Shown: piece by piece, positions 3,517-32,200 of the stretch
Numbering within the stretch: position 1 is the first letter of the stretch
Layout: the number at the start of each line of letters is the position of its first letter
From: Methanomassiliicoccales archaeon UBA280
Lineage (GTDB): Archaea; Thermoplasmatota; Thermoplasmata; SG8-5
DNA length: 64,000 nucleotides
NCBI GenBank assembly: GCA_002499085.1
Contig: DAKD01000016.1
Location: 88,880 to 152,879 of the forward strand
Reading direction: 5' to 3'
Translations under genes and position numbers: made by a program
Notes under the pieces: model-generated
The model's database searches: none
What the model saw: only the letters and a program-made list of their open reading frames with translations
Told to the model about the DNA's origin: nothing

Positions 3517-3621
3517 AGTCTGTTTGTTGTATTTCCTTGACTCGATTCTTTCACCTTTTTAGCATCAGCTAGAAAAAATTTTTTGGCAGGTCGAATCTCG
3601 CCAATAATCCAGGTTTCGACC

Positions 3622-3664: not shown

Positions 3665-3715
3665 ACCCTATTCGATGGACAGTTAGAATAGTTATGAAAA
3701 CATTGGAGGTGGTGC

Positions 3716-3898
3716 ATGACCAAGAATCGAGTGGTTTATACGAAGGGGTTCAAACTGGCGATTTTGTCACAAATTGAATCCGAACTCCCACTTGCCCAGG
3801 TAGCCCGCGAGAATGGCCTCCACCCGGCCTTGGTAAGCCGGTGGAAGAAGTATAGAAGAACGGTTCTCGCCTTCCAGGAATGGGGGGATATCGACTAA
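3716..3898 (+). mobile_element. IS3-family transposase OrfA N-terminal HTH fragment (remnant, no OrfB)
   Basis: 60-aa ORF KNRVVYTKGFKLAILSQIESELPLAQVARENGLHPALVSRWKKY fits the IS3/IS911 OrfA HTH pattern (YSxEFKLxAV...VARExGI....LxRWxKxY). No leucine zipper or DDE domain follows, and the downstream plus-frame ORF is antisense to a real gene. Confidence 0.5.
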
Positions 3899-17800: not shown

Positions 17801-18328
17801 CATACCCATGTTTATCGGGCCTGCCCAGTCGTCGTCGGAAAGCATCAATGCCGTGCCTCCAGTGACGCCGTCAACCCATGTGTAAGGGATGGTGGGCGCG
17901 GGAGCATTGCTGTCCTCCCAGACATATCCAAACATATCCGGACCGCCTGACTGCTGCGGCTCTACCGGAATCACACCAGAATTCGTCGGCAATCCCGCCT
18001 CCTTAGATCCTGTAGCTGTTGGTTTGCTGGAATTCTCGGAATCCCTGAGCCTTGGCGGTATCAAGGCGCCCTCGGATGGTTCATTCTCCACAATGTTCAG
18101 GTTCCTCTGAGGTACTTCAGATGACCCTTTGAAAAAATTGGTGATAAGTGACGGTTCTTGGGTGTCTTGAATGATTACCTCTGGAACAGCATCATCCGCC
18201 AGCGATTCTTCTGATGCTTCCGCTGAAGCAGCGGGGCTAAGGCTCATCGCAACCATCACAGCTACCAGAAGTATAGCAGCCATTCCTTTCCATGACGCAC
18301 CGGTCTTGACAGAGTCAGTATGTGTCAT
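11843..18328 (-). CDS. giant secreted, C-terminally membrane-anchored surface protein (2161 aa) with parallel beta-helix, jelly-roll/MAM-like and flavodoxin-like modules
   Basis: N-terminal signal-like MAAILLVAVMVAMSLSPAASA. PbH1 repeats NNDVGILLDGVAGCEIHDNIIRNCGDGIQLNNAGGNRIQGNEILNNVGAGI. LamG-like region. Acidic Pro/Glu linker then a TM helix LLALLAISVIMIGMALF plus RKRK. Alternative start at internal Met 18283. Confidence 0.8.
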   Translation of the reverse strand: MTHTDSVKTGASWKGMAAILLVAVMVAMSLSPAASAEASEESLADDAVPEVIIQDTQEPSLITNFFKGSSEVPQRNLNIVENEPSEGALIPPRLRDSENSSKPTATGSKEAGLPTNSGVIPVEPQQSGGPDMFGYVWEDSNAPAPTIPYTWVDGVTGGTALMLSDDDWAGPINMGMSFNYYGKIYDNVYIMSNGWISFVDADSWFQDVPIPDDVNYQGIISPYSCDINPGAWGEVYYQCMPGTPDMFVVTWYDIPHYSTSEYQTFQAVLYGDGDIMFNYQTMTNPWGIVGIENEISSDGLDYSSGSPPPVSGTSILFYGPPPPAYAVEINPDFESNIGLPGNTVSYDLSVTNNGINTDTFDLSAKNNEWPVEFWSSSSVSLINEQFEGAFPPPGWVTVDYFGWGYPGGEWHSNDYTGYSNDAGTGQCTEANSDYLSWDWTWSGGVDAGLCTPIFNLDGYASATLEFDQYYLDENWGSWDYAEVWICWDGGGSWDLLDYYDEDHGPNEHVTLDLTPWIGLGDAFIEFYYYDDWNWCYWWQIDNVEVTAYTETSVPITSVGPLALGDVAFFSVRVNIPADASPGEFDVADITASSRGDNTVLDTVQLCTYIPSWFDNFESGSPGWTVEGDMWHMVQDGVSPYPNSHSPTTSWWYGQDATGDYDNGNSNWGVIISPPVDLTGQSTTTLSFWEWYQTEGLYPMFDQRWVFIYSDSTGWVPVEQLNENAMNAWQQRSFDVSPFSNQIVHIAFYFDTGDEIFNGFRGWYIDDVSLGSPLVFDFTVSPDSQTNFGWVGEWVEHRVSITNTGTIPDVYLPMFYNNMDTSQNADWWTKFFTVDLRPQGIYNGIDDGSQTWWWGPVQPGETKEYAIKVFVPTNEIGAFDQARIFITSDNLGSVVKEIEIWTRLSMPAPFYDTFELAGNQGEFGLYNDPVLGWIHGAWQRTDTDDVGVWGGTSYTGTFSLYTGGEDNSATTIKIDMDMPNGIASCVVRRGDVAFGSDNPEAGEDLIIEYSDGNLQWAQWHELGRFPGGGTPGEILTPLWTLPEDALNPRFQLRFRTVNGEIWSDYWHIDNVFIGAPESWFGLQTPTTSDMRGPGDIALYEISVENYARHCDEYTVSLEGNTWPTEVLVSAFKDDFDDLNRNGWTVVDEGWTDGPPSNWYVDGAGRLRQTDNIYSYSGQWLPGTYLWNGNAAWSDYILTADLMSSDNDGIGLMARYTDSHNYYRFHWSADAGWDKDLTEPGLQRRVLDVCVDGVWQVLASDNIPYTLSQWYDVEMRMLGDRIQVLIDGNLIFDVNDGSLDHGAIALYSWGNTGIYFDNVAVFAQDTLISPLGPQGPLNTDTFFVAVDIPADVIGLSDTVTVTVTSILEPWVSNTMTLTTTAARVHNLDQDTWFMAIQPAVNAADPGDTLWAYPDTYQENVVVDKAVTIHGLDRDTTIVDGTVDATGGVPLNNILIYADDAFHPAPNTYVDQALNNLGLTYTAHYDSDFAGFEADLTGGGPWDLVIFGHENYNTDLTTILNALDTYIAGGGRVIFNTWEMSWTSHAFWTTMGVAYASDDGSPPDPVYWWDTSNPLFNSPESVPQLTTPADVGYGTYACKVNPLAGFDAIAGHVPAVTAGEAAIVPGNDGRTIFKSFLDGQFGQDADTDGIADGVELWINMISSMGTPMARTSVFDVRANYVSIDGFTIQNNDVGILLDGVAGCEIHDNIIRNCGDGIQLNNAGGNRIQGNEILNNVGAGILAAGNTFAPFQDDFAADSGLWTYYGNAARVGGYCSLTTNAGSLVGQILYNEPIHTPFIATFDFYAGGGTGADGMAFNFFKEAYTPAGGGSIGAQDADETTLGYAIEFDNWDNGASDPSANHIALIQNNVNNHLTNVNDPRTEDATWHNVMVIVTPWSVTVYVDDMDNPLLEWSGQLDMTHGGMSFSAGTGGSTNHHRVDNVRVVPLGNMIEANQVKNNDFGVILDSSMTNKVFHNNFINNGVHALDNRDDNQWDDGYPSGGNYWSGFTGPDTQNGPLQNIPGADGMIDNPYVIDASSQDNYPLKGQYTTAGIVIEPVAVVEEPVEEPEDEDEGDTITAVLPEVPTHPIQYTVPQDDEIPADEEPVAETPVPEDTEAAEPVPDQNDPVRESVASVPNGIGSGYLLALLAISVIMIGMALFIRKRK

Positions 18329-18527: not shown

Positions 18528-21500
18528 TCAGTCTGCCTGAGGCTCTTCGGGGGCCGGCTCGGCTCCGTCCTGCCCGCCGTCGGGATCGTCAGGCTCCTCC
18601 GGCCCGGACTTCTTCTTCTTTTTGAGCAGCATGAAGACCAGCAGGCCGGCGACCAGCAGGGCTATCAGCAGCACCGGGATTATCCAGCCCACGCTGCCGG
18701 ACCCGCCGTCCTCTTCGAGCGCGAGGATTATGTCGTCGGCTGCTGTCGCTGTTCCCGCGGCAACGCTTGCGGTCGTGGAGCCGGACTGGTAGCCTTCCTT
18801 TGAAGCCTGTATCGTGTACGAGCCTGCAGGCACGCTGGCGAAGGCATAGTTGCCGTTCGCGTCCGTGGTCGCAGTCAGAGAAGTACCCTGCAATGACACG
18901 GTCGCTCCCTCTATTCCGGCGCCGCTTCCGTCCAGGACCCTGCCTCTCAGGCTGCCGGATGGCGTCTGAGGCTGGGCTTGCGTTGTGAAGGTCCGCGTCA
19001 TGTCAGCGGCCATAAGGTTGCCCGCGATGTCAGTTATTCCGGAAGCAGTCAGGTTTACGGTGTACGTTGTTCCGTATGCCAGAGAGGTGCCCGGCACGAA
19101 GGTCATTACGGTTCCGGCCGTGTTCCAGACGAACGTACCTGTGACCGCTGGGAACAGGGAGAACGCGGCCTGTGCCGCGGTCTGGCCCACAGGCTCGCTG
19201 AAGGTGACGGTGATGTTCGTCCCGATCGAGATATTGGTGCCTGAGGGAACTACAGTGGCAGTGGGCGCCACCCTGTCGACTATTGTGGCAGTATCAGGCA
19301 CTGTCCCGCCAATCGGAACCGTCCTGTGGTTTCCTGCCAGGTCAAACGCGACAATATAGAACCCAAAGGCTCCGTCGGAAGATGCCGTGAAGGATATGGG
19401 TGAAATGAGGTGATGTGTAGGTGTTGCCGTCCAAGTCGAGCCTCCGTCCGTCGTGTAGTAGAGGACATAGTATGCCAAACCGCCGGAGTCCGTCGCGGTG
19501 AAGGCGATGTTGAAAGTTGCTACCGTGGTATAGGCCGGCAATGCCGTGACAGTCACGGTCGGAGCGGTCGCGTCATAAGCCCAAGCAGCGTCGGCCGAGG
19601 AGGGCGCGGCCTCAACCTGTCCGTTCGAATCCGTTGCGGTGGTGTAGAACTGGTAGAATCCCTGGCCGCTTGCGAACCCGAAGCTCCATGACCAGGGCGC
19701 GGCAGTGTCAGTTCCGAAGCTATTCCATCCGCCCCATGTGGCGTTGTCAGTGGAGAATCTGTACCACAGCATCACGCTGGCGACAGTCCCCTCGGAGTCG
19801 CTCGCGGTCGCCTCAACGGTCAGCGGACCTGAAGCCAGCCAGTACGGCCCGGCCACGGTCACTGAGCTTGTCGGCGGGTTCGTATCGGCTCTGCGCCTGC
19901 ATGAGTCATCCGCGGAGGCCGGCGGCAGCTCCCCGTTGTCGGCATTGTCGACCGCTATGGTGTAGAACTCATAGTATCCTGTCCCATTGGGCATGGTGAA
20001 AAGCCAGGACCAGGGCGCGGCATAATCTGTGCCGAAGGCCACCCATTCGCCCCAGGTTGCGTTATCGGCAGACCATCTGAACCAGAGCGTGACGTTCCTC
20101 ACGCCGCCTACCGCGTCGGAAACCGTCGCATCCACAGTCCTGCTGACCTCGTACGAAGCATAGGCTCCGGGCACGGAGGCGGCGCTGTCCGGTGCGGTGA
20201 TGTCATAGGCCCATGCCGCGTCGGCCGAGGCCGGCGCGGACTCGTAATTGCCGAGGCCGTCCGTCGACCTGCTGTAGAACTCGTAGAATCCCTCCCCGTC
20301 GGGCCAGTCAAAGGTGAAATCGAACGGAGCCAATGTGTCGGTCGCGAAGAGGGCCCATGCGGACCATGTTGCGTTATCGGACGAGAATCTGTACCAGAGT
20401 TCGATGCTGCCGAATCCGTTTAGCTGGGAGATGCCGGAGACAGTGGGTATCAGGGGCGATGTTGCGCGAGCATATGGGGCAACAAAGTTCACGTTCGTGG
20501 AGGGTGCGGTCGCGTCGTATCCGTAGCTCACTTCCGCAGGCTTCAGCGCCTCCTGGTTCCCGGCCCGGTCCACACCTCTGGTCTGGAACTGGTAGAAACC
20601 GTCAGCGCCGAACGCGAAGCTGAACGAATAGGGGGCTGTGGCGTCGCTCATCTGCAATGACCATGCGCTCCATGTTACGTTGTCTGCGGAATACCTCATC
20701 CAGAGATCCACATTAGATATGTTGCTCAGCGCGTCGCTTCCGGTTGCCGTGATGGTTATCGGGGATGTTATGCGCCAGTAGGCGCCGGTCACGTCGGCCG
20801 CTGTTGTCGGACTTGCAGTGTCGTACCCCACCCGTGCGTCAACGCCACTGTAGGTTTCCCAATTGCCAGCAAGGTCAACCCCTTCCGAGTATAACTCGTA
20901 GTAGCCGTCTCCATCAGGGAAGGTGAAGGTCCACTGGTATACCGGGACTGTGATGGTTGAGCCGTACTGCGTCCATGCACCCCATGTCACATTGTCTGCG
21001 GAATAACGATAGTACGCGTTCACGCCAGCCAACCCGCTCATCGCATCGCTCCCGAATGCTGTGATGGCCAGCAATCCATTATGCCAATAGAATGATCCCG
21101 CGGTCATGCTCGTGGCAGGTGCCGCCGTGTCATAGCCGTACGCCGCATCGGCCGTTCCGGGCATGGCTTCGGTGTTCATTGCCCTGTCCCATGCCTGGGA
21201 AGCGAACTCGTAGTAACCTTCCCCGAAAGGCCACATGAAGTCCATCGAGTACGGTGCGGTGAGGTCCGTGCTCATGTAAATCCACCCGCTCCAAGTCGCG
21301 TTGTTTGCAGAGTGCCGGCAGTAGAAGTCGACTCCGCCGACGCCGCTTAGGCTGTCTGAAGCGGTTGCGCCGATGGTGAACGGGGCTCCGACCTGCCAGT
21401 ATGCTCCGGCGGGGGTTACGCTGCTTGCCGGGTCAGTGGCGTCATAGGCGTTGAAGGCATCGGCCGCTGCTGGCGGGCTCTCGTAGTTGCCGAGCGTGTC

Positions 21501-24500
21501 CATGCCCCGGGTGAAGAACATATAGTATCCCTCCCCGCTTGGCGTGTAATCGAACGGGAATTCCCAGGGGGCTGCGAAGTCCGTGCTGAAGACTGCCCAG
21601 GGGCCCCAGCTGATGTTGTTGACCGACCAGCTGTACCAAAGCTCGACATAGCTCACAGGGTTGCCTGTGCCCATGACAGTTGCGGTGAGTGTGACAGGCG
21701 CGTTAAGCCAGTACGGCGAATACTGGTCCAAGCTGGTGATCGGCGCGGGCGGGTTCCAGAACCATTCGGCGTCCCGAACCGGTGGTGCAGCTTCCGTATT
21801 CTCTGCATGGTCACTGGCGATTGTGTAGAACTGATAGTATCCCAAGCCCATGGGCCAATCGAAGGCGAACTCCCATGGCGCTGCGTCATCGAGGCCAAAC
21901 CAGGTCCATCCGCCCCATGTCGAGTTGTCTGCCGAGTACCTGTAATACAGGGCCGTGTAGTTCAAGCCGCTGGGCCCGGCATCGCCGGCCGTAGCCATCA
22001 CTGTCATGGTAACCGCTGTCTGCTCGTAGGGCGGGATGAATATCACCGTGCTGCTGGGCGTGATGTTGTCGAAGCCTATCTCCACGTCGTACCCGCCCGG
22101 GGGCCATGCAGGCGCGTTGCCGAGCGTGTCATAAGCCCTTGCGGCGAACCTGTAATAGCCTGTTCCGTTCGGGTATGTGAAGCTCCATTGCCATGGGGCT
22201 GCACTGTCGACAGCGAACACGCTCGGCCCGCCCCAGGCGATGCCGTCCGGAGAGAACCAGTACACCAGCTCCACGCTGGCGACAGGGTTGAGGCCGTCAA
22301 GGGCCGTGGCTGTTACGGTCAATGGCGATGAGTTCTGCCAGTACTCCGGTATCATGTCCACGGTGGCAGCGGGCGGCGTGCCGTCGTACCCGCCGACGGC
22401 ATCAGCCACACCGGGCTGTGCTTCAAGGTTCCCGGCTGCATCGACGGCAGTGCAGTAGAAGAGATAATACCCGTTCCCGTTGGGCCAGTTGAACGCCCTT
22501 GTGTAAGGCGCTGCGAAGTCGCTGCCCAGCGACACAGGCGCTCCCCAGGTGACATTGTCCGCCGAATAGGCGTAGAAGAACTCGACCCATGCTATGCCGC
22601 TAGTCGCATCGAAGGCTGTTGCGGTCAGGGTTTTGGGGGCATTGTTCCAGTACGGAACAACCGGGTCAACGCTGCTCGAGGGCGGCGTTACGTCATAAAC
22701 ATAGGGCCCGGACTCGATGAATGTCGGGTTGACAGGCACAGGCTCGAAGCCGTTCGCCTGGGCGCACCAGTAGTATGTCCCGTCCGACGGCAGGTCGGTT
22801 GTCGGCGTCCAAGCGAAGTCAGGCAGCGTCACATCCTGGCCCCAGAAGTTCCAGGATGTGCCGCCGTCGTTCGTGTAGTAGATGTCAACAGCGGTTATGG
22901 TTCCGCCGTATGTGTATGTAATCGCTGGCCTTGGGTCTTGGCTGCCCGAGCTCGTGGGGCCTGTTGCCGAAGCATACTCTGTTCCGGCGGTCGTGAATGT
23001 GAAGTTTCCGTCTCCGGTCAGGGGGTTCCCCACAAGATCCGTGAATCCGCCTGTTTCAAGGTTCACATTGTACATTGTCGTGTAGGCAAGACCTCCATAT
23101 GTGCCGTTCAGCCATGTCCCGTCAGCCGACCATGTCCATACGGTTCCCGGCAGTGATGTGTCCACCAGGCCCAGCCCCGTGTCCATAGCCTCGTTGAAAT
23201 GAATTCTGAACGTTCCGGCCGTTACAGGCACATTAATGGCGCCGTCCGGCGGCGATGTCCATATCACTGTCGGATTGGTGGTGTCGTAACGGTAGGCAGC
23301 GTCCGCGGTCGCGGGAGGCGACTCGCGCCATCCCCAGTCGTCGATCGCTATGGTGTAGAACTCGTAGAATCCCTCTCCATCGGGCCAATCAAAGTCAAAC
23401 TCCCAGAGCGGCCCTGTGTCTGTGTCGAAGTATGTCCACGCGCCCCAGCCGGCGCCGTCCAGCGAGTGTCTGTACCATAATTCCAGGGACGCGACCGGGT
23501 CAGAAGACATTGATATCTGCACGTTGTCAACCTCGAACCACCAGTTCCAGCCCGGGCAGTAATAATAGAACTCAATCATAACGTTTGGCTCGCCGATGTA
23601 GGCGCTGAGGTCGTAGGATTGGGGGGCGCCGGGGCCGGATGGGGAGACATCCCAGTTCCATGTGTCTATGTTTGTCCATAAACCGCCGCCGTCCGTGGAT
23701 ACCCTCACCGCGGCATACTCGGAACCTATAAAGAAATTGTAGGACATGATGAAATCGAGGGTCGCGACAGATGCACCAACAAGGTTGAAGCTGGGCGTCC
23801 TTAGCCCTGTGTTCATTGTGGTTCCTGAACCGAGTCTGTCGCTGTCCGCATCTGCGCAGAAACCCGAGCCTCCTGCATAGTTCGGGCGACCTCCGGCCCA
23901 CATGTCGTTTCTCTGCCAGACTCCGTCACCTCCGTAGTTGACAACTGTCCATCCGGCAGGGGGCCAGGCTCCCTCGAACTGCTCGTTTATCAGAGTGCCG
24001 GAGAATCCGACCTCCGCCTCTATGGTCATCGGGCTGATGTTCACCGTGTCCGGCATGGTCTGTATCGCATTGCTGCTTGGGCAAACCAGGTCGAACAGCC
24101 AGGCCGCGTCCGCGGCGCCGGGCTCGTCCTCGTAGTTCCCTGCGAAGTCGCGCGCCCTCGTGTAGAACTGGTAGTATCCGTCTGCGTTAGCCGTGAAGGT
24201 CCATTGCCACGGTATTGCATTGTCCGTGGAGTGCAGGGTCCATATGCTCCATGTGGAATTGTCAGGGGAATGGCGCACCCACAGCTCCACAGACTGCACG
24301 CCGCTGAGGCCGTTGCCGGCGTCTGCGGTTATGACACGGCTCGGGCCGAGGTTGAGGTACGGTTCTGTCAGGATGACATTGCTCCACGGTATCGAGGTTT
24401 CATAGGCATAAGCCGCATCCGCGAAGAAGGGTGCAGCCTCGACAATGCCCGCATTGTCCTCGGCCACCGTGTAGAACTCGTAATATCCCTCTCCATAGGG

Positions 24501-27500
24501 CCAGTAGAATTCAAAGTCCCAGGGCGCGCCGAACAGCGTGTCCCAGTAGGTCCAGGCTCCGAACATGGCGTTATCCGCCGAGTACCTGTAATAAAGGTCA
24601 ACCGATGCCAGGCCGCTCGATGTCTCCAATATCCCGTCGCCGTACATCATTATATCGTCCACCATCCACACGCCTCTGCTTCCAATTGGGGTTTCCGCCA
24701 GGTAGTTCCATGCCATCATGACCGAGGGCTCGCCGGCATAGGCCGAGAGGTCTATTAGAATCGGGACCTCGTACCAGTTCCATCCCGGTCCTCCCGGACC
24801 GCCGGTCAAACCGTCAAAGTCGTAGGCCGGGTCATGGGCAAGGTCGGCCACAATGTCCCATGTGGAACCGCCGTCGGTCGAGACTCTGACATAGTCATGT
24901 GAGGTGGCTGACGAGCCATATCTCAGCATCGTGTAAGCGGACCAGAACTCCAGTTCCACCGTTGAATAGGAAGAGAAGTCCATCTCCGGCGAAATCAGCC
25001 ACTCGTCCTGCTCTCTGGCCGGCGGGTCGCCGCCGCTCCCGTCGCTCCACCAGACGCCTGCGCAGTAGGGCAAAGAGTTGGGCAGCGGTAACAACGAATC
25101 GTCCATCATGGACCAGTAATGCGTGAGCGTAGGGTTGCCGCTCTGGCTGGCAGAGCATATGCCGTCCACGGACCAACCTGTCGGCGGCCAAATACCGCCG
25201 TCGAAGTTCTCATTGATAAGGTTGGAGTCCCTGGCCTCGGCTCTGATGACGGTCGGGAATTCGCTGCGCCAGTACGAACCTTCCTGTATGACATGGCTTG
25301 ACGGCGCTCTGCCGTCGACTATTATACTGGCGAATGCCGTTGATTCTGTCTGGTAGTTTGTCACTGAGTCCCAGCCGTAGATGTAGAGGTCGTATTGCCC
25401 GTCTGGCCAGCCTGTCGTGTCTATGGGCGAGGTGGCCCACTCGATCGGGCCGTCGAAGTCCCCGTCAGCCGGGTTCATGGCAACTCCGGGGAAGTTTCCC
25501 TCGCCGAAGGTGTACAAAGCCCCCTCGACAGTGTTCCACCAGAAGTATGGGTTGGACTCAATCATACCAATCAGCGTAAGCAAGGTTCCGGGCTGAACTA
25601 TGGCCACCGGGGTTCCGTCCACGAGCGCATTTGACGATATCGGTGTCCTTGTCACGAGCCAACTCATTATCTCTGCCATCGCAGCAGTGCGCTCAGGCTC
25701 GTCGCCCATCTTCGAGTGGTCGAACGATGAGATCACCGAGCGGAAACCGCCACCGTCCATTCTCACCATTGTGGTCGCGCCGGCACCGAGGCCGGGCGAG
25801 AAGTAGCAGGATCTTACGGCCGCCGGGTCGACAATCTCAAGGATTGCATAGCTGCCCCATACCGAGGGGCAACTGCCTGGTGCGTCCATCGGGAATCCCA
25901 GGCCGTCGCCTATCGGGTCCCCGTTCTCGCCGGCCAGGGTCTGGGGTGCGGAACCGAACATGTCCCAGCCGTATCCCATGCCCCCCATGGAACCGTCGAC
26001 GGGCACAGCCCCGAACCACTGGCCCAGCCAGTCGGTCCATCCGTTTTCCGCCGCATCCATCCAGAACATGTCTCCTGTGAGGTAAATACTGCCGCCGTTC
26101 AGGAGGTAGTCCTGAATGTTCGTGCGGTCCGCAGCGGTAAGGCTGGGGCCGTTAACACCATAGGAGTTGCCTGTCGCCCAGATCACTCCGATGTACTGAG
26201 ACATATCGGCATAGGAAGGTGCACCGTAGGTTGCCACGTCCCAGAAATTGTAAGAAGCATATCCCATAGTATCCAGCCAGTCCAACGAGTCTGTGTACCA
26301 GTCCTCTGAGTCGATGCCCAGGTCGTCGTCCACCAACAGCAGGTCCGCATATGCCTGGCTGAACAGCTCGCACCAATCCCACTCTGCCGGGTCAGCCTGG
26401 GACTGGCCGTAAGGCCATGTGTATTCAATGTCCCCGGGATTGACAAAGCCCGGAATATCCACACGCACGATGAAGCTCTGGGACTCGCCGTACTCGAGCG
26501 GCCCGATGGCCGTTATAGGGCTGTAACCCAGGTCGAGGAATTGCGCGGTCCAGCCGTTCATCGAACCGTAATCGAGGTCGAAACTGTCGTTCCCCAATGT
26601 CCCGATGTTCGTGATGCTTACCCCGTAATCAATGCTGCCGCCGGGAAGTTCGAATCCCTGCTGCAAAACGGGGGTCAGCAGGCATCCCCTGTCTGGGTAT
26701 GCGGCATCAACGTCGAAGTCGTCGATGTACCATCCCGGATAGCCGCCCGTGGCGGGCGAGGACATGAATCTCATCCTGAAGGACACTGTCTCTCCCAGGT
26801 ACGGTGAGAGGTCAAACTGCTCCTGCAACCATCCGCCCGAGAAGCCGCTGAAGCTGTCGATTCCCCACCAGTTCATCCAGTCATAGCCGCCCACGGGAGT
26901 TATCTGGGTCCATGTCTGGCCGAAATCCGCTGTTATCTCGACCGAGCCGCCGTCCATGCCGTCCGTGTCATACCAGTGATGGAAAGACATCTCGGACCAG
27001 GAAGCCAGCCCCAGCGTGAAGTAGTGAGAGACCAGGGCGATGTCCGCCTCAGGATAATAGTCGTCGGCCAGGTTGGTTCCCCAGCAGTTGTCCGGCGAGT
27101 AAGCCGCGCCCGGGCCGAAACCCGAGGGATCGCCGATCTCCCAGGCTGTGGCGCCAGATCCGAAAGCCCTGAAGTCATAGAATGCCCCCTCGAATTCGTC
27201 GAACGCATGCGGCTCCACCCATACCTGGGTAAAGGTTTCGGCCGTTGCGGAGATTGACGGATCCGTCCAGGAAGCAACAGAAACAACGGCTAAATCCCAT
27301 TCGCTCGGGGACGCGCCCATGGGTATGTCCACAACAATCGTGAACCGGAAGCTCTGGCCCGGGTCCAGGTTGCTTGTTTGAGTGATGTCGAAGCTTGCTG
27401 TCTCGTCCATTATCCTCGTGTTCCAGGCGGAGGGATAGTCAAAGTAAAGGTCGAATGTGTCCGGAAACGCCATCCTGTTTGTGACCTCTACGGAATAGAT

Positions 27501-30500
27501 TACCGTGGTGTCCGGCATGTAGGCGAACTCCTGGTGCTCCGGCGTCATCTCCACTGAATCCTCTGCCAGCAGCCAGTCCAGAATCCTTTCCATCAGTTCA
27601 GCCCTGTCGTCCGCACCGTCCACGTCCGCCAGGTCGAAGCCAGTGAAGACAGTTCTGAAACCCGCAAAGGCATAGTGCATGGAGGCGCCGGCCATGTCAG
27701 GGTCCCAGACTATGGGAATCGCCGCATTCGGCGCGGCAGGGTCGTTCCAGGTCCAGACGCCGCTCAGCTCGGCCCAGTAATCACCGGTGTGTATGCACAT
27801 GTCCAGGCCGTCGCCTATCGGGTCGCCCGGCACTCCCAGCATGTCATACGGGAAGCCGTAGTCGCCATTCCACGGATTGGCGCCGAGATAGTTGTTCATC
27901 CAACCGGTCCCTATGTTGAAGGCCGAGTCCCAGCCGAACCCGCCACTCGAAAGGAAAAGTCTGCCGCCGTTGTCCAGATATGTCGAAAGCTCGCCTCTCT
28001 CTTTGGAGTCGAGCGTGTCCTCCGGTGAACCGAGCGTCGTCGTGCCTCCCGAGAGGTCCCCGGTGGTCCACACGACAGCGTCGAACATGTCCATGAATTC
28101 TGCGGCCGGGCAGCCGTGTTCGGTTGTGTCCCAGCAGGTGTGAGGCAGGCCATAGTCGTCGAGCGCAAACAAGTAATATGTCTCGACAGAGAGGCCGCCG
28201 TCGTCGTCCACCAGCAGTATCCCGCCCGGGACGATGGTTGTCAGCATGGCGGAATCGCCCGCGCCAGGGTCGTTCCAGGATTCTGCCGAGACATATGCCA
28301 GGTCGCTGTCCCCGGGCATTGCGCCGCCCGGTATGCTGCACCTGGCCGTGAAGTCCAGGAAACCGCCCGAGTCCACAGGGCCGACCGAGGTTATAGGCGC
28401 AGGAGGTATGCCCGTGTCCCCGTATATGTGCACATTGTCGATCTGCCACCATCCGGCCCATATCCCGCTGTCGTAATAGTAGAACTCGATCGAAACATCG
28501 TCGTATCCCACCCACGGGGTGAGGTCGATGAAGATGTTCTCCCCGGGTCCTGTCGGCGAATGGTCCTCATCATAGTAGGCGAGCAGGTCACCCATGCCGT
28601 CATAATACACAACAACGTAAGCGTAATCATCAGAACCCAGGTTCAGGTCGTAATAGCACATGTCGAACTCCAGTCCGGCCGCGGGGAAGCCGTCAAGGCT
28701 GAACTCAGGCGTTGTGAGCGAGGCCTCGACCCCGCCGCTGCCAGTCCACCAATTGGACATGGCATCGCTGTTCGCCTCGGCGCAGTACCCCGCACCGGCC
28801 CAGTTCGGGTATCCGGTGTAATCGTTGCGGTGCCATTCGCCCAGCGGGTCGCCCCATGAGTTCCAATCGTATAGCGTCCATCCGGGCGGCGGGAACCGCC
28901 CCTCGAAATCCTCGCTCACCAGTGTCTGGGTTGGCGAGCTCCAGAACTCGATCGGCCACACGCTGGTCGAATACAGGTCATAGGAGTCGGCCTCGGTTCC
29001 GGAATTTGCAATTCTCATTGTATAGTCCACATCTGCCCCGGGCAAGCCGAAGTTAACCTGCTGAGCGGGGAACAGGTCTGCGCGGTACTGAGGGGGGGCG
29101 CCCATGAATATATCGTCCAGGTACCATCCCCAGTCGCCTCCCCACCAGGGCGAGGATGCGAAGTGGAACCTTGCCTGCACAGCCTGTCCGGCAAAGGCGC
29201 TCAGGTCGAACTCGTAAAACTCCCAGCCGTCGCTTGTTCCGGAGAAGGCATCAGTCATGTAGCCGCTGCAGTATGCGTCCGTGTAGGGATATCCCCAGTA
29301 ATGCGAGCCGTATGTCGGTTGTATCTGCATCCAATCACCTGCTCCGCGTACCTCGACGAAGCCGCCGTCATCGCCATCCGTCTCCATGTCGTACCAGGTC
29401 CAGAACGAGAGCACCTGCTGGCCGCCGCTGAGTCTCACCCAGGGCGTTACCAGGGCCATGTCAGTGCCCGGGTAGTACGCGTCCCAGAGGTTCGTGCCCG
29501 CGCATTCCGTGCCCGCGAAGGCGCTGCCCGGCCCCGCGCCTGAGGGGTCGCCTATCTCCCATTGTGTGGAGCTGGGCATTTGCTCGGTGAAGGTCCACGC
29601 GCCCCAGCCTGTCTCGAATCCGTCATACCAGTCGGTCCAGAATGGAACCACAGTCTCGGTCTGCGCCATCCTTTGCACGGCCGGGTCTGCCTGTGATGTG
29701 ATGTAGATGTCCGCGATGTCGAAATCGCCGGGTCCGGCGCCGCCCGGGACTCCCACTGTGGCCAGGAAATCCATTGTTTCCCCCGGTGCCAGCGGCCCTA
29801 TCTGTGAAATTAAGGCCGTCTCGGTAATCCTGATATTGTCCAGCTCGAAGAATGCAGGTCCAGACATGGACTCAGGAACCCACCAGTCGAACTCGATGTA
29901 AACTGTTGTCCCTGCATAAGGCATCAAGTCTACTAGGCCTTGCAGGATGCCCGTATCGGACACATATGTGTTTGCTGGCGCAACCAGTATAACATGGGAT
30001 TCAATCGGGGGGCCGCCTCCCGAGGGTTCGATGAGGACCGAGAATGTTCTGTCAATGGTCGCCGGAATCGTCTCCAGGTCCCAGGCAGCTCTATAATCGA
30101 ACATCAATACGGAGTTGGCCAAAGGCACATCGAAGTCCTGGCCTGCCAGAATATGGCCGGGGCCGTTGCCGTCGAACCCGTTCTGGAGGGAATATATCCC
30201 GTCGGTCGGGGCGCTGTCGAAGAAGCCGCCTCCAGGGTTGTTCCCTGCGCCCGAGACCTGCAGAGGCGAGAATGGGCCGGATAAATCCGTGGCGTCCCAT
30301 CCAGTGAAGTCCCCGGTCTCGAAACTCGGGTTGTTGAGTTGGGATGCGGACAGGCCGTCCAGGCCGTAGAAATCCACCGGCCAGGAGCTGGTTGCCATGA
30401 GGTCATATGTGTCGTCGCTCAGCCCGTTGTTCGTTGCGTGCAGCATGTACGATACCTGCCCGCCCGGCACCCCGAAACCGCGCTGCGCTTCAGGCTCCAG

Positions 30501-31997
30501 CCTGGCGTCATTAAGGCATCCGACGAGGACGTCGTCTATGTACCATCCTCTGTAACCATTCGCTATGTCGTCCACGGTGCTGAAATAGAAACCGATGCTG
30601 ACTGTCTGTCCGTCATAGGCCGATAGGTCCACGACCCTTTCCTGCCATGTAGACATGGTCATCCTATCAAGCAGCACCAAGTCCTGCCACCCGGTGCCGT
30701 CGTCAACCTGTATCCAGCGTTGGTCATGATCGGGACTGCCCTCGGTCTCGTACCACTCCCAGAAAGCAAGGACCGAGCCAGTGCCGGTCAGCTCCAGCAT
30801 GGGAGTTTCCAGCCTTCCCGCATTTGCATCGCCGTCGTCATAGTCCCCTGTCGAGTCCTGGCCGTACCACCAGCTCGTTTCGTAGCTGTGGTAGTCGGGG
30901 TAGGGGCTGACACTATCCCAGACCTGATGCCATAATCCGTAGTATGTCCAACCGTTCTCCCCGCTCTCCATGTCGTCGAACCAGGGCGTGGCAAGGGACT
31001 GAGTGTAAGTCACGGCATTGTGGAATATGAGGGGCAAGTCCCCGGTGTACTGATAGTATGTCCCGACATAGGAATTGATGCCGACCACATTACCCTTCAC
31101 AGCCACGAAATTCTCACCGTCGTCCCAGCTGGCGACCAGGGTCGCGCCGGGGTCCAGCGCCGTGTAGTCCCTGTATTCGTCGCCAGCTGCGGTTACCCCC
31201 GCCATCAGCCGGTGCGCGGCGTCGAACCAGCCCAAGCTGGCTGTCGTAAAATGATTACCGACATCGAGAGACACAAGGGGGCTGTAGCCTTCCGCAGTGA
31301 ACCTTCCCTGTGGCCCGCCCCATCCTGTGGAATCGACCCAGTTGAAGGTCCCCTGGACCACACATCCGCCGGCATCGACGTAGTCGGCGAGAACATCTCC
31401 CAAACCTGTCACGTCGAGGTAAGCGTAATTGCTCCATGTGACTACAACATCGTAGCCGAGCAAAGTCGGCAGGTCGGGCGTGGCAGACCTTGCATCGAAA
31501 ATGTCGACAGTGCCGATGTCCGGGTATGCATCGAGCTGCGAGCGCAGGGGCTCGCCGTTGCCATCGTCCGCGTGGACCAGCAGCACCGAGTCCACATATA
31601 CGTTTTGTTTTGCACCCGGGTCCGAGGCGATCTCATGGTCGCCTCCACCGCCTGCCGAGTACCCGCCCCTGCCTGAGGAAGATGCGCCTGCATCTGCAGG
31701 CCTCTCCGCGGCCATCATCCTGCCGTAAGCGCTGCCGGAGCCTGAGCTCAGCAAGCCGCTCGGCACGTCGCCGGAACCGGGAACTGTCCATTGGCGGCCG
31801 TCCGAGGTCTGTATGCCGATACCGTCCGCATCAGTCTGCCCCGTGAGGTCGGGCGCCCATACGAAATCCTCGCCTGAGGGCTCGGCCGCGGGCAAAACCT
31901 CACTGACGGGTTCCGTATCCTCCGCGCCGACTGCCATCACGAACGCCGATGTCACAATCATCATTCCGACCCATGTCGCAAACAGTTTCTGTTTCAT
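18528..31997 (-). CDS. giant modular surface protein (about 4490 aa) with ~16 tandem Ig-like ~105-aa repeats, MAM/jelly-roll-like modules, flavodoxin-like modules, CarboxypepD_reg-like domain and C-terminal TM anchor
   Basis: Signal peptide MKQKLFATWVGMMIVTSAFVMAVGA; start placed at this Met (ORF track begins 13 codons earlier at 32036). Recurring repeat signature YRYSADN.TWG.WT...D.APW.F.F.WP.GEGYYEFYT.A.D.AGN.E. C-terminal GSLRGRVLDGSGAGIEGATVSLQG...YTIQASKEGYQ (carboxypeptidase regulatory-like). TM IIPVLLIALLVAGLLVFMLL plus KKKKK and acidic tail. Confidence 0.8.
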   Translation of the reverse strand: MKQKLFATWVGMMIVTSAFVMAVGAEDTEPVSEVLPAAEPSGEDFVWAPDLTGQTDADGIGIQTSDGRQWTVPGSGDVPSGLLSSGSGSAYGRMMAAERPADAGASSSGRGGYSAGGGGDHEIASDPGAKQNVYVDSVLLVHADDGNGEPLRSQLDAYPDIGTVDIFDARSATPDLPTLLGYDVVVTWSNYAYLDVTGLGDVLADYVDAGGCVVQGTFNWVDSTGWGGPQGRFTAEGYSPLVSLDVGNHFTTASLGWFDAAHRLMAGVTAAGDEYRDYTALDPGATLVASWDDGENFVAVKGNVVGINSYVGTYYQYTGDLPLIFHNAVTYTQSLATPWFDDMESGENGWTYYGLWHQVWDSVSPYPDYHSYETSWWYGQDSTGDYDDGDANAGRLETPMLELTGTGSVLAFWEWYETEGSPDHDQRWIQVDDGTGWQDLVLLDRMTMSTWQERVVDLSAYDGQTVSIGFYFSTVDDIANGYRGWYIDDVLVGCLNDARLEPEAQRGFGVPGGQVSYMLHATNNGLSDDTYDLMATSSWPVDFYGLDGLSASQLNNPSFETGDFTGWDATDLSGPFSPLQVSGAGNNPGGGFFDSAPTDGIYSLQNGFDGNGPGHILAGQDFDVPLANSVLMFDYRAAWDLETIPATIDRTFSVLIEPSGGGPPIESHVILVAPANTYVSDTGILQGLVDLMPYAGTTVYIEFDWWVPESMSGPAFFELDNIRITETALISQIGPLAPGETMDFLATVGVPGGAGPGDFDIADIYITSQADPAVQRMAQTETVVPFWTDWYDGFETGWGAWTFTEQMPSSTQWEIGDPSGAGPGSAFAGTECAGTNLWDAYYPGTDMALVTPWVRLSGGQQVLSFWTWYDMETDGDDGGFVEVRGAGDWMQIQPTYGSHYWGYPYTDAYCSGYMTDAFSGTSDGWEFYEFDLSAFAGQAVQARFHFASSPWWGGDWGWYLDDIFMGAPPQYRADLFPAQQVNFGLPGADVDYTMRIANSGTEADSYDLYSTSVWPIEFWSSPTQTLVSEDFEGRFPPPGWTLYDWNSWGDPLGEWHRNDYTGYPNWAGAGYCAEANSDAMSNWWTGSGGVEASLTTPEFSLDGFPAAGLEFDMCYYDLNLGSDDYAYVVVYYDGMGDLLAYYDEDHSPTGPGENIFIDLTPWVGYDDVSIEFYYYDSGIWAGWWQIDNVHIYGDTGIPPAPITSVGPVDSGGFLDFTARCSIPGGAMPGDSDLAYVSAESWNDPGAGDSAMLTTIVPGGILLVDDDGGLSVETYYLFALDDYGLPHTCWDTTEHGCPAAEFMDMFDAVVWTTGDLSGGTTTLGSPEDTLDSKERGELSTYLDNGGRLFLSSGGFGWDSAFNIGTGWMNNYLGANPWNGDYGFPYDMLGVPGDPIGDGLDMCIHTGDYWAELSGVWTWNDPAAPNAAIPIVWDPDMAGASMHYAFAGFRTVFTGFDLADVDGADDRAELMERILDWLLAEDSVEMTPEHQEFAYMPDTTVIYSVEVTNRMAFPDTFDLYFDYPSAWNTRIMDETASFDITQTSNLDPGQSFRFTIVVDIPMGASPSEWDLAVVSVASWTDPSISATAETFTQVWVEPHAFDEFEGAFYDFRAFGSGATAWEIGDPSGFGPGAAYSPDNCWGTNLADDYYPEADIALVSHYFTLGLASWSEMSFHHWYDTDGMDGGSVEITADFGQTWTQITPVGGYDWMNWWGIDSFSGFSGGWLQEQFDLSPYLGETVSFRMRFMSSPATGGYPGWYIDDFDVDAAYPDRGCLLTPVLQQGFELPGGSIDYGVSITNIGTLGNDSFDLDYGSMNGWTAQFLDLGYSPITAIGPLEYGESQSFIVRVDIPGFVNPGDIEYTWPYGQSQADPAEWDWCELFSQAYADLLLVDDDLGIDSEDWYTDSLDWLDTMGYASYNFWDVATYGAPSYADMSQYIGVIWATGNSYGVNGPSLTAADRTNIQDYLLNGGSIYLTGDMFWMDAAENGWTDWLGQWFGAVPVDGSMGGMGYGWDMFGSAPQTLAGENGDPIGDGLGFPMDAPGSCPSVWGSYAILEIVDPAAVRSCYFSPGLGAGATTMVRMDGGGFRSVISSFDHSKMGDEPERTAAMAEIMSWLVTRTPISSNALVDGTPVAIVQPGTLLTLIGMIESNPYFWWNTVEGALYTFGEGNFPGVAMNPADGDFDGPIEWATSPIDTTGWPDGQYDLYIYGWDSVTNYQTESTAFASIIVDGRAPSSHVIQEGSYWRSEFPTVIRAEARDSNLINENFDGGIWPPTGWSVDGICSASQSGNPTLTHYWSMMDDSLLPLPNSLPYCAGVWWSDGSGGDPPAREQDEWLISPEMDFSSYSTVELEFWSAYTMLRYGSSATSHDYVRVSTDGGSTWDIVADLAHDPAYDFDGLTGGPGGPGWNWYEVPILIDLSAYAGEPSVMMAWNYLAETPIGSRGVWMVDDIMMYGDGILETSSGLASVDLYYRYSADNAMFGAWTYWDTLFGAPWDFEFYWPYGEGYYEFYTVAEDNAGIVEAAPFFADAAYAYETSIPWSNVILTEPYLNLGPSRVITADAGNGLSGVQSVELWVRHSPDNSTWSIWTLHSTDNAIPWQWTFTANADGYYQFYTRARDFAGNYEDEPGAADAAWLFDLVCPSSNAIQTMPDTVNISPMTIEAEVGFSGTLINEQFEGAWPPAGWTVVNYGGDGVWQRNDMWAGGRPNYAGGSGFCADADSDRLGSGTTMNTGLRTPSFNLVGASVATLDFIMSYNFFIGSEYAAVRVSTDGGGLWTNIDTWNWDVSPSGPGAPQSYDLSAYIGEPNVMIEFYYYCPGWNWWFEVDNVQISMSSDPVASLELWYRHSLDGAGWGAWTYFDTDTGPLWEFDFDWPDGEGFYEFYTIAIDDWGWRESPPATADAAYRYDTTNPTVIWTSPPDGAINVPVTAGTFRIHFNEAMDTGLGLVDTSLPGTVWTWSADGTWLNGTYGGLAYTTMYNVNLETGGFTDLVGNPLTGDGNFTFTTAGTEYASATGPTSSGSQDPRPAITYTYGGTITAVDIYYTNDGGTSWNFWGQDVTLPDFAWTPTTDLPSDGTYYWCAQANGFEPVPVNPTFIESGPYVYDVTPPSSSVDPVVPYWNNAPKTLTATAFDATSGIAWVEFFYAYSADNVTWGAPVSLGSDFAAPYTRAFNWPNGNGYYLFYCTAVDAAGNLEAQPGVADAVGGYDGTPPAATVDMIPEYWQNSSPLTVTATALDGLNPVASVELVYWFSPDGIAWGGPSVFAVDSAAPWQWSFTYPNGTGYYRFAARAYDTLGNAPAWPPGGYDVEIGFDNITPSSTVIFIPPYEQTAVTMTVMATAGDAGPSGLNYTALYYRYSADNSTWGGWTWFGLDDAAPWEFAFDWPMGLGYYQFYTIASDHAENTEAAPPVRDAEWFWNPPAPITSLDQYSPYWLNAPVTLTATVMGTGNPVSYVELWYSWSVNNISWGPWAVFSTDFAAPWEFPFDYTPSGEGYYMFFTRGMDTLGNYESPPAAADAFNAYDATDPASSVTPAGAYWQVGAPFTIGATASDSLSGVGGVDFYCRHSANNATWSGWIYMSTDLTAPYSMDFMWPFGEGYYEFASQAWDRAMNTEAMPGTADAAYGYDTAAPATSMTAGSFYWHNGLLAITAFGSDAMSGLAGVNAYYRYSADNVTWGAWTQYGSTITVPVYQWTFTFPDGDGYYELYSEGVDLAGNWETYSGVDARVGYDTASPTTAADVTGAYWRITSPITITATGSDALSNISNVDLWMRYSADNVTWSAWSLQMSDATAPYSFSFAFGADGFYQFQTRGVDRAGNQEALKPAEVSYGYDATAPSTNVNFVAPYARATSPLIPTVSGISQLNGFGSIELWYRFSSDNATWSAWALFATDTLAPFDFTFDWPDGEGFYEFYSRSTDGLGNYESAPASADAAWAYDITAPDSAASVPGAYASYEVSRTVDATVSDAVGGVRNVTLWFRWSADNATWGEWVAFGTDYAAPWSWLFTMPNGTGYYEFYTIAVDNADNGELPPASADDSCRRRADTNPPTSSVTVAGPYWLASGPLTVEATASDSEGTVASVMLWYRFSTDNATWGGWNSFGTDTAAPWSWSFGFASGQGFYQFYTTATDSNGQVEAAPSSADAAWAYDATAPTVTVTALPAYTTVATFNIAFTATDSGGLAYYVLYYTTDGGSTWTATPTHHLISPISFTASSDGAFGFYIVAFDLAGNHRTVPIGGTVPDTATIVDRVAPTATVVPSGTNISIGTNITVTFSEPVGQTAAQAAFSLFPAVTGTFVWNTAGTVMTFVPGTSLAYGTTYTVNLTASGITDIAGNLMAADMTRTFTTQAQPQTPSGSLRGRVLDGSGAGIEGATVSLQGTSLTATTDANGNYAFASVPAGSYTIQASKEGYQSGSTTASVAAGTATAADDIILALEEDGGSGSVGWIIPVLLIALLVAGLLVFMLLKKKKKSGPEEPDDPDGGQDGAEPAPEEPQAD

Positions 31998-32200
31998 TCC
32001 AGATTCCTCCTCAAGTTCCGAAGTGCCCGCGTGCATCCGCGCATGCCGGCAATAAATATGCAGCTACATCTGATTTGAGCTATTTAATGTTTGTTGATTA
32101 TATCAAACATATTTATTCTTCATTAAAAGAAAACCCCACACAGGCATCTGCAACGAAACTCTTATCCCCAAGTTGCGGATTGAGGCACGGTGGTCATAGG

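Follow-up and report, generated by a model that had tools for sequence, protein, structure and literature searches.

Modular architecture of a giant, putatively adhesive surface protein encoded by a Methanomassiliicoccales-related archaeon

A giant surface protein and its likely role

The 64,000-nucleotide stretch of Methanomassiliicoccales archaeon UBA280 analysed here (positions 88,880 to 152,879 of contig DAKD01000016.1, assembly GCA_002499085.1; hereafter the window) carries on its minus strand a gene for a giant modular protein of 4,489 amino acids (aa). We consider it likely that the product is a type-I, C-terminally anchored cell-surface protein of a Methanomassiliicoccales-related Thermoplasmata archaeon, with adhesion or ligand capture as its most likely role. 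A giant modular surface protein had been proposed in the initial annotation, and this description is borne out by an intact reading frame, by domain matches above curated cut-offs and by a C-terminal anchor. The combination of a stalk, a membrane anchor and a head of binding-type domains fits the plan of archaeal adhesin-like proteins, which is why adhesion or ligand capture is favoured; the conservation of the stalk and the variability of the head across three homologues (P0071, P0076 and L008, described below) were counted in the same direction. We place the protein, which is uncharacterised, in this known class of giant adhesin-like proteins from archaea and do not regard it as a system of a new kind.

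In the proposed mechanism the protein would be exported by the Sec pathway and its signal peptide cleaved, after which it would stay anchored in the cytoplasmic membrane by a C-terminal transmembrane helix and a KKKKK cluster, its short acidic tail pointing into the cytoplasm. About 19 consecutive β-sandwich domains (a CarboxypepD_reg domain, two Big_5 domains and ~15 Big_7-like repeats with an Asp-box-like hairpin) would form a membrane-proximal stalk, which may extend over tens of nanometres, assuming ~4 nm per domain. The distal 2,200 residues would constitute a multivalent head composed of MAM/choice-of-anchor-J jelly-rolls, CARDB-like domains and putatively non-catalytic ThuA-like modules. 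As the domain types of this head bind carbohydrate or protein ligands elsewhere, it may bind particles, polymers or other cells.

Integrity of the gene

On the minus strand, the giant gene occupies one continuous open frame (window 18528..32036), which yields 4,502 aa when counted from the first ATG. Residues are numbered from this ATG, so that residue n lies at window coordinate 32036-3(n-1); only the glycosylation sequon counts use the numbering from M14, which is 13 less. The second ATG (M14 of the maximal open reading frame, ORF), located at window 31997, gives the 4,489-aa product (18528-31997). It is preceded at ~8 nt by a Shine-Dalgarno-like GGAGG and, farther upstream, by an AT-rich stretch, and it is also the start used in public gene calls. 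The single 13.5-kb ORF ending at 31997 that had been annotated initially is intact, position 31997 being the ATG of a signal-peptide-like start (MKQKLF...).

An exact-sequence look-up found the 4,489-aa product on three contigs from NCBI and Logan sources, the identified carriers being the NCBI assembly GCA_002497815.1 (contig DAEZ01000007.1, 41.9 kb) and the Logan assembly of SRR5036787 (30.8 kb), while a 154.6-kb NCBI/ENA contig carries this ORF as a 4,502-aa call. It is very unlikely that the gene arose as an assembly chimera or through collapse or expansion of the repeat array, or that it is a pseudogene not translated into a single protein. Such an origin might be suspected because all contigs with the giant ORF appear to be metagenome assemblies and because the related gene at locus L008 is split into two ORFs within a repeat. 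However, the occurrence of the identical protein on NCBI, Logan and ENA contigs argues against the chimera of one assembler. The identity of the repeats to a reference copy is only 33-46 %, and Tandem Repeats Finder detected no DNA-level tandem array in the giant gene, which leaves nothing that an assembler could easily collapse. In addition, the independent homologue P0071 has a collinear array that corresponds mostly repeat by repeat, and the 13.5 kb are free of stop codons. Internal stops or frameshifts on resequencing had been named as findings that would overturn the annotation; the frame contains no stop, and the same ORF recurs on the NCBI, Logan and ENA contigs.

Membrane anchor and surface exposure

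Apart from the N-terminus, the only strong Kyte-Doolittle peak of the protein is the C-terminal transmembrane helix WIIPVLLIALLVAGLLVFMLL, which is directly followed by KKKKK, in agreement with the transmembrane segment and Lys-rich stop-transfer described initially. The CarboxypepD_reg-like domain of that description was likewise recovered, as PF13620 (65.4 bits, curated cut-off 32.3), and it is preceded by Big_5 (PF13205; 89.8 bits over two stretches, cut-off 23.6). Sorting through PGF-CTERM and archaeosortase was considered and rejected: the NCBIfam scan of the giant protein returned neither a PGF-CTERM model nor an archaeosortase signal, the PGF motif is missing, and the basic cluster is trailed by a 26-aa acidic tail. 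At the other end of the protein, residues 29-344, including an acidic linker, are 44 % identical to the homologue P0071, and the linker is thus partly conserved.

Of the 4,489 residues of the mature protein, only 14 (0.3 %) are Lys, and five of these belong to the stop-transfer segment; the proportion is 1.1 % in the neighbouring 2,161-aa protein and 4-9 % in the cytoplasmic proteins of the window. Its net charge is about -459, and Trp and Tyr account for 4.6 % and 5.8 % of the residues. This composition is typical of an exposed ectodomain and unlike that of the cytoplasmic proteins of the window. All checked homologues are Lys-poor too (0.2-1.9 %).

The stalk and its Ig-like repeats

Most of the stalk consists of immunoglobulin (Ig)-like repeats of ~108 aa. 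A hidden Markov model (HMM) built from the unsplit copies recognises 13 canonical copies, two of which are split by an inserted domain, and two divergent ones, spanning about 19272-25316 of the window; HMMER counts 16 repeat stretches. The initial annotation had reported ~16 repeats of near-identical length at 19400-24700, so that the repeats themselves stand, while their number and span have been refined. In an alignment of ~110 columns, twelve unsplit copies show 33-46 % identity to the reference copy. Their Ig-like nature, also proposed initially, fits the matches to Pfam Big_7 (PF17957) in six of these twelve copies (best E 1.5e-6; the other six have no Big_7 match) and to Big_13 in four, as well as the NCBIfam OmpL47-type domain when summed over the repeats (E 1e-12). 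It also fits a PDB profile search, in which the repeat matched the Ig domains of chitodextrinase (9x9r) and the X1/Fn3-like modules of CbhA (3pdd, 3pe9), with E about 2e-4.

Each of the ten uninterrupted repeats carries Y-R-Y-S-x-D-N-x-T-W. The S-x-D-N-x-T-W segment falls into a gap of the PDB targets and thus represents an extra hairpin relative to those Ig/Fn3-like modules. It resembles an Asp-box shortened by one residue, and the two divergent repeats carry the canonical form of that box, (T)-x-D-G-G-x-(T/S)-W. Between the head and the first repeat, residues 2146-2240 matched no Pfam or NCBIfam family.

With the repeat profile, an exhaustive search of 1.84 billion cluster representatives identified 8,595 proteins at E ≤ 1e-3, of which 637 reached E ≤ 1e-30; many of the proteins are giant, with 10-53 copies; a word-index search with the same profile had returned one protein only, owing to the limit of the word index. 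Judged by these matches, the repeat type appears to be very common in metagenomes. Some of the matching proteins are named "hypothetical protein", "uncharacterized membrane protein" or "Ig-like domain repeat protein [Thermoplasmata archaeon]", and some from bacterial metagenome-assembled genomes (MAGs) "PQQ-binding-like beta-propeller repeat protein".

The exhaustive profile search also revealed homologues of the whole architecture, which overturned an apparent lack of orthologues: a search with the N-terminal 1,187 aa had given single-domain matches only. The full-length homologue P0071 (JGI 3300063141; 4,940 aa on a 341.5-kb contig) is collinear with the giant protein and 50 % identical to it over 3,329 aa; between the type-a flavodoxin-like module and the anchor, the modules follow each other in the same order. 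The partial protein P0076 (MBI4999929.1, Euryarchaeota archaeon) is 46 % identical over 2,653 aa. At the L008 locus, the protein P0005 (1,787 aa) is immediately followed by a 1,565-aa ORF that continues the same repeat, and stalk and anchor are reproduced behind a Kelch-type head. All three are uncharacterised giants of the Thermoplasmata/Euryarchaeota and share with the giant protein the stalk, the nested Ig(MAM) units and the order Big_5, CarboxypepD_reg, transmembrane helix and basic anchor. L008 differs by a Kelch propeller head in place of the ThuA-like and CARDB modules, and P0071 by 12 instead of 10 uninterrupted repeats and by another genomic neighbourhood. The break in L008 lies at 9840-9880 (JGI contig Ga0566183_0003271), in the middle of an Ig-like repeat; a frameshift, an error in sequencing or a pseudogenisation of recent date is its probable cause. 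A scan of genome contigs with residues 1271-2146 gave no match, the species being apparently unrepresented there or the region masked.

When all repeats of the giant protein were scored against all repeats of P0071, the positional counterpart was the best match at most positions (scores of 322-447, compared to 235-293 for the best paralogue within the protein); two mid-array positions were ambiguous, and the two extra repeats of P0071 lie in the membrane-proximal third of the array. The ends of the array can be followed further. The divergent repeat at 3020-3115 scores 218 with its positional counterpart in L008, versus 29-68 with the other L008 repeats, and the terminal repeat at 4154-4255 is orthologous to the last repeat of P0071 (340) and of L008 (269). 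This position-specific orthology with P0071 and, at the array ends, with L008 indicates that the array is older than the split of these lineages and has escaped homogenisation, and the match of most repeats with their counterpart in P0071 points to selection on the array itself. The earlier view that the repeats are old and no assembly artefact is confirmed by this orthology with a 50 %-identical homologue and by the identical protein on the NCBI, Logan and ENA contigs.

The composite head

Jelly-rolls of the MAM/choice-of-anchor-J type are present in seven copies, as recognised by our own HMM. The MAM-like assignment made initially was supported by InhA-like_MAM (PF20773), for which Pfam gives 86.2 bits (cut-off 26.9) and three stretches over the whole protein, the best one at residues 1670-1777. 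The choice-of-anchor J model (NF038128, cut-off 30 bits) reached or exceeded its threshold at residues 2273-2472 (41.8 bits) and 350-512 (30.0 bits) and remained slightly below it at 1040-1206 (28.8 bits). The motif FWEWYETEG....DQRW, which had been presented as a general signature of these domains, occurs once here and once, nearly identical, in the neighbouring gene; it is the signature of one jelly-roll subtype and not of every copy. In addition, four CARDB-like domains were identified, two unsplit and two split. Across the whole giant protein, the Pfam and NCBIfam scans detected no catalytic domain.

The initial annotation had described alternating module types. The modules were recovered, but a simple alternation was not, as four of the jelly-rolls are nested within CARDB-like or Ig-like domains. 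With a CARDB HMM made from the two unsplit copies only, residues 513-552 and 741-793 align to model positions 2-44 and 55-107, and residues 988-1026 and 1214-1264 to positions 2-43 and 56-106. About 187 aa separate the two halves of each pair, and both inserts independently match the MAM-type HMM; for the first one (~560-740), which is divergent, the E value is 5.7e-5, compared to E 0.067 with the choice-of-anchor J model. Ig-like repeat 1 is interrupted in the same manner: with the repeat HMM, residues 2241-2271 align to positions 2-32 and residues 2471-2550 to positions 31-110, and the 199-aa insert passes the choice-of-anchor J cut-off. Repeat 3 is interrupted at the same point; the short part N-terminal to the insert is recognised by eye only, and the insert (2681-2842) matches the MAM HMM with E 7e-49. 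The unit of half-repeat, MAM and half-repeat is present twice in each of P0071, P0076 and L008, which indicates an inherited composite unit and not a misreading.

The third component of the head comprises flavodoxin-like modules with the pattern hLLVDDD. The three copies reported initially were found (residues 146-349, 1271-1497 and 1894-2146), although the full module measures 200-250 aa instead of ~100 aa and falls into two subtypes, a and b. None of the three matches a Pfam or NCBIfam family. An alignment of the type-a module with 14 homologous modules led to an AlphaFold2 model of high confidence (predicted local distance difference test, pLDDT, 91.4; pTM 0.91), for which the top Foldseek matches in the PDB were the ThuA-like structures 4pxy, 2gk3 and 3rht (E 3e-7 to 2e-5, TM-score 0.66-0.73, probability 1.00), followed by class-I glutamine amidotransferases as well as the GH42 β-galactosidase middle domain. 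The sequence identity with 4pxy, 2gk3, 3rht and the GH42 middle-domain structures is 11-15 %. Pfam matches among the 15 aligned modules are weak: ThuA (PF06283) in eight (best E 5e-4), GH42M in two and DUF4350 in one. Based on the model, the flavodoxin-like label is right at the fold level for type a, more precisely as a class-I glutamine-amidotransferase/ThuA-like fold.

Type b is less well defined. Its two copies share 29 % identity, and the first one is 45-52 % identical to the modules at the corresponding positions of P0071 and P0076. The two subtypes are related through their N-terminal β-α-β core only (hhalign probability 69 %, E 4e-5, 54 columns). A type-b model from a four-sequence alignment is of low confidence (pLDDT 53.6), with a β-α-β N-terminal half, and its fold matches to GH42 middle domains, flavodoxins and the N-terminal domain of IFT52 are suggestive only; a flavodoxin-like fold is nevertheless probable. 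Sequence-profile matches of these modules in the PDB were dismissed as spurious: AI-designed TIM barrels (β-α periodicity), an endolysin and a light-harvesting peptide. Neither the type-a alignment (15 sequences) nor the second module alignment (seven sequences) contains an invariant Cys or His column, hence there is no amidotransferase triad and the modules are probably non-catalytic. Thus, the type-a module shares its fold with ThuA and class-I glutamine amidotransferases (4pxy, 2gk3, 3rht, GH42 middle domain), but differs from them in being extracellular and embedded in a giant protein, without a Pfam ThuA match and without invariant Cys or His.

Candidate functions

Adhesin-like proteins (ALPs) of methanogens combine a membrane anchor with Big-domain repeats and a β-helix; their transmembrane anchor is mostly N-terminal, and some contain CarboxypepD_reg (PMC11532034). 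Like the ALPs found in Methanobrevibacter smithii and in Methanosphaera stadtmanae (PMC11532034), the giant protein is a large, repeat-rich, membrane-anchored surface protein with Big-type Ig-like repeats, likened here at the level of domain type to the "archaeal Big domain" (ABD) of those proteins. Basic residues flanking the transmembrane helix and a poor Pfam coverage of the repeats are further common traits. It differs from ALPs in its head of MAM/choice-of-anchor-J, CARDB-like and ThuA-like modules, in its lineage (Thermoplasmata, not Methanobacteriales) and in its size of 4,489 aa, about twice that of the neighbouring gene. The right-handed β-helix is found in the 2,161-aa neighbour instead: Pfam detected Beta_helix and NosD there, and neither of them in the 4,502 aa of the giant protein.

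Judged by this architecture, an adhesin is a plausible reading of what had initially been called a likely giant adhesin or cell-cell contact protein. Three points weigh against it. No sequence feature specific for adhesion was found in the giant protein, its anchor is C-terminal and its β-helix missing where methanogen ALPs mostly have an N-terminal anchor and a β-helix, and in other proteins the same MAM, CARDB and ThuA-like modules frequently come joined to S8 peptidases, as expected of generic extracellular modules. Bacterial secreted proteins with choice-of-anchor J/InhA-like MAM domains, e.g., bacillopeptidase-F-like S8 peptidases, share the MAM jelly-roll at ~45-55 % identity per domain, often beside CARDB/NEW3-type and CarboxypepD_reg domains. 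However, they are equipped with a catalytic peptidase domain and with sorting signals of the bacterial type, whereas no catalytic domain was found in the giant protein.

Two other roles were weighed against adhesion or ligand capture. The protein might be a structural component of the envelope, forming an S-layer-like or glycocalyx-like coat around a wall-less Thermoplasmata cell with N-glycans on the sequons of its stalk, but we regard this as unlikely. An N-x-S/T at one conserved position in 10 of the 12 aligned repeats, the extremely acidic and Lys-poor composition and the presence of a giant ORF at the same chromosomal position in close relatives are in line with such a coat, as is a weak, local match of the Big_5 - CarboxypepD_reg - transmembrane end to the Kustd1514 S-layer glycoprotein model (NF052345). 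Membership of the Kustd1514 type was nonetheless rejected, as the match reaches 24.9 bits against a cut-off of 1,400 and is confined to the Big_5/CarboxypepD_reg region. Moreover, the composition of the head varies strongly among homologues and syntenic genes, which would be unusual for a lattice-forming protein, a protomer of 4,489 aa far exceeds the typical size of S-layer proteins, and the lack of a PGF-CTERM or archaeosortase signal in the NCBIfam scan points in the same direction. Even less probable, in our view, is a cell-surface machine for processing or harvesting glycans, in which the ThuA-like modules and the 3-keto-disaccharide-hydrolase-like and lectin domains of the neighbour would act enzymatically on sugars. 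Structurally, the type-a module comes closest to ThuA-like proteins, related modules are fused to hydrolases such as S8 peptidases, and the neighbour contains a 3keto-disac_hyd domain (PF06439; 43.5 bits, cut-off 26.8) as well as an L-type lectin-like domain. On the other hand, the giant protein's own modules match no Pfam or NCBIfam family and lack the invariant Cys or His of an amidotransferase triad, GH42 enzymes use the same fold for oligomerisation, in a non-catalytic domain, and PF06439 has a concanavalin-like fold that is widely used as a binding module.

Glycosylation potential

Potential N-glycosylation sequons (N-x-S/T) were counted and compared with the expectation obtained by shuffling, the head of the giant protein being defined as residues 1-2228 (window 25314-31997) and the stalk as residues 2229 to the end (Table 1). 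Sequons are nearly lacking, to a striking degree, in the head of the giant protein and in its 2,161-aa neighbour; they are depleted in three of the four syntenic giant ORFs of close relatives, and enriched in L011, P0071 and P0001; P0076 is enriched as well. Ten of the 23 sequons of the stalk lie at the repeat motif. These trends suggest that N-glycosylation may be a selective factor acting on these surface proteins. A more far-reaching possibility, which we consider quite improbable, is that of a functional design rule, with heads kept free of glycans and the stalk glycan-coated at one fixed site per repeat, combined with ThuA-like modules that would represent a new ligand-binding or enzymatic family working with the 3-keto-disaccharide-hydrolase-like domain of the neighbour. 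If this were true, the opposite sequon trends in the sister lineages (L011, P0071 and P0001) would point to an arms race, e.g., with glycan-recognising viruses or grazers.

Table 1. Observed and expected numbers of N-x-S/T sequons in the giant protein, its neighbour and related proteins
Protein or region	Observed	Expected by shuffling
Giant protein, head	1	9.3 ± 2.8
Giant protein, stalk	23	17.0 ± 3.7
Neighbouring 2,161-aa protein	1	19.2 ± 4.0
L009 syntenic ORF	1	22.4
L010 syntenic ORF	4	17.7
L012 syntenic ORF	4	15.9
L008 head	1	8.2
L011 syntenic ORF	33	14.9
P0071 head	36	23.9
P0071 stalk	37	23.1
P0001	67	30.2

Feature map and genomic surroundings

The features of the giant gene and the position of its neighbour are listed in Table 2.

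Table 2. Features of the giant gene and its neighbour in the window, from the N-terminus to the C-terminus
Feature	Window position	Strand	Residues	Evidence
Start codon and signal-peptide-like segment MKQKLFATWVGMMIVTSAFVMAVGA	31923..31997	-	14-38	hydrophobic peak at residue 5; GGAGG upstream; public calls
Acidic Gly/Ser-rich linker, no domain match	31602..31922	-	39-145	translation
Flavodoxin-like module, type a	30990..31601	-	146-349	model: ThuA-like class-I glutamine-amidotransferase fold
MAM-type jelly-roll 1 with FWEWYETEG...DQRW	30501..30989	-	350-512	own HMM E 2e-62; choice-of-anchor J 30.0 bits
Split CARDB/NEW3-like Ig domain with nested divergent jelly-roll	29658..30500	-	513-552 + 741-793; insert ~560-740	own HMMs
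MAM-type jelly-roll 2	29076..29639	-	800-987	own HMM E 5e-54
Second split CARDB-like domain with nested choice-of-anchor-J/MAM	28245..29075	-	988-1026 + 1214-1264; insert 1040-1206	insert 28.8 bits
Flavodoxin-like module, type b, copy 1	27546..28226	-	1271-1497	family alignments
Unsplit CARDB/NEW3-like domain	27225..27551	-	1496-1604	Pfam NPCBM_assoc E 4e-4 on the isolated domain; own HMM
MAM-type jelly-roll 3	26679..27224	-	1605-1786	own HMM E 4e-49; best InhA-like_MAM stretch
Unsplit CARDB-like domain	26355..26678	-	1787-1894	own HMM
Flavodoxin-like module, type b, copy 2	25599..26357	-	1894-2146	family alignments; own HMM E 7e-145 (iterated)
Unassigned ~95-aa segment, possibly a degenerate Ig-like domain	25317..25601	-	2146-2240	weak repeat-HMM match at 2202-2234, E 0.0055
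Ig-like repeat 1, split, with nested choice-of-anchor-J/MAM (2273-2470)	24387..25316	-	2241-2271 + 2471-2550	insert 41.8 bits
Ig-like repeat 2, unsplit	24078..24404	-	2545-2653	repeat HMM E 2e-44
Ig-like repeat 3, split, with nested MAM-type domain (2681-2842)	23271..24077	-	~2654-2680 + 2843-2922	first part by eye; second part HMM positions 31-110, E 1e-25
Big_5 domain 1	22971..23279	-	2920-3022	Pfam
Divergent repeat with YYTNDGGTSW	22692..22979	-	3020-3115	weak repeat-HMM match, E 0.48
Ten uninterrupted tandem Ig-like (Big_7-like) repeats, ~108 aa	19560..22697	-	3114-4159	repeat HMM E 1e-40 to 1e-46 per copy
Divergent terminal repeat with YYTTDGGSTW	19272..19577	-	4154-4255	repeat HMM E 2e-23
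Big_5 domain 2	18981..19253	-	4262-4352	best Pfam Big_5 stretch
CarboxypepD_reg β-sandwich	18738..18953	-	4362-4433	PF13620
C-terminal transmembrane helix WIIPVLLIALLVAGLLVFMLL	18624..18686	-	4451-4471	strong Kyte-Doolittle peak
KKKKK stop-transfer, 26-aa acidic cytoplasmic tail and stop codon	18528..18623	-	4472-4476 (KKKKK), 4477-4502 (tail)	translation
Neighbouring 2,161-aa surface protein	11843..18328	-		Pfam, NCBIfam, BLASTP against the giant protein, own HMMs

The 2,161-aa gene follows the giant gene on the minus strand after a gap of 199 bp, and an AT-rich region upstream of it suggests that it has its own promoter. Its product contains NIDO, a split CARDB with nested MAM, MAM, 3keto-disac_hyd and NosD/β-helix domains, and ends with a transmembrane helix followed by RKRK. 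The sharing of modules between the two genes, noted initially, was traced to two BLASTP segments: residues 981-1270 of the giant protein, i.e., the split CARDB with its nested MAM, are 51 % identical to residues 322-610 of the neighbour (295 aa, E 1e-84), and residues 340-560, around the first MAM domain, are 45 % identical to residues 597-834 (238 aa). The identity in these segments is about as high as that between the giant protein and its own full-length homologue in the same modules, which supports the view that modules were exchanged or duplicated between the two genes.

The neighbour also carries a fourth flavodoxin-like (hLLVDDD) copy. This module (residues 1449-1657) and an L-type lectin-like domain (1758-1936) lie between NosD/right-handed β-helix segments (window 12521-13984), which suggests two domain insertions within the β-helix. 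Another CARDB-like domain of the neighbour appears split (residues 780-1373, window 14210-15991), with residues 780-831 and 1324-1373 aligned to HMM positions 3-49 and 58-105, both weakly (E 0.004 and 0.015), and an insert of ~490 aa that comprises a MAM-like segment and the PF06439 domain. Directly downstream, on the same strand, a 178-aa ORF (window 11287-11823) has no Pfam match.

The genes flanking the two surface proteins are archaeal (archaeal-type CCA-adding enzyme, GCD14-type tRNA methyltransferase, Nop, eIF-2B). Adjoining the giant gene, the split glycine dehydrogenase subunit shares 84-88 % identity with its counterparts in five MAGs that bear the label Thermoplasmata archaeon or Methanomassiliicoccales archaeon (e.g., UBA147), the next tier being at ~62 %. 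Around the start of the giant gene (window 31949-32200), the gene for glycine dehydrogenase subunit 1 has a maximal ORF of 524 aa, beginning at 31949, that overlaps this start. Public calls give 440 aa, so that an AT-rich divergent intergenic region of ~200 bp lies between the real starts.

As in the window, four of the closest relatives (L009-L012) have a giant minus-strand ORF divergent from the glycine dehydrogenase (gcvPA homologue) genes. In three of them it runs off the end of the fetched DNA (at least 2,840, at least 2,878 and at least 954 aa), while in L012 it comprises 2,555 aa with an adjoining 483-aa ORF. MAM and CARDB-like domains alternate up to 6-8 times in these ORFs, with no flavodoxin-like module in the visible part, and the comparison with the giant gene points to a fast turnover of heads at a conserved locus. 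The neighbourhoods of P0071 and L008 resemble each other and differ from that of the window, with genes for DUF5611, Gpr1/Fun34/YaaH, an HD protein and an AMP-binding enzyme.

Elsewhere in the window, an 895-aa protein (36492-39179) contains CARDB/NPCBM_assoc domains, and a 1,169-aa protein (60450-63959) shows an unusual mix of CARDB domains and several zinc-ribbon (DZR) modules. Scans of the whole window for tRNAs and Rfam families gave no matches.

Implications

The locus reveals no new mechanism, and its use lies in annotation and as a template for structural work. The points of interest are modest: the conserved domain nesting, the extracellular ThuA-like modules, whose types a and b are both unnamed in current family databases, and the polarity of the sequons. 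Giant surface proteins are probably the main interface of uncultured Thermoplasmata with their surroundings, and almost none has been characterised. The locus described here provides a fully assembled example of a stalk-plus-head protein of this kind, with a repeat array that retains position-specific identity across species and a recurrent nesting of domains within domains.

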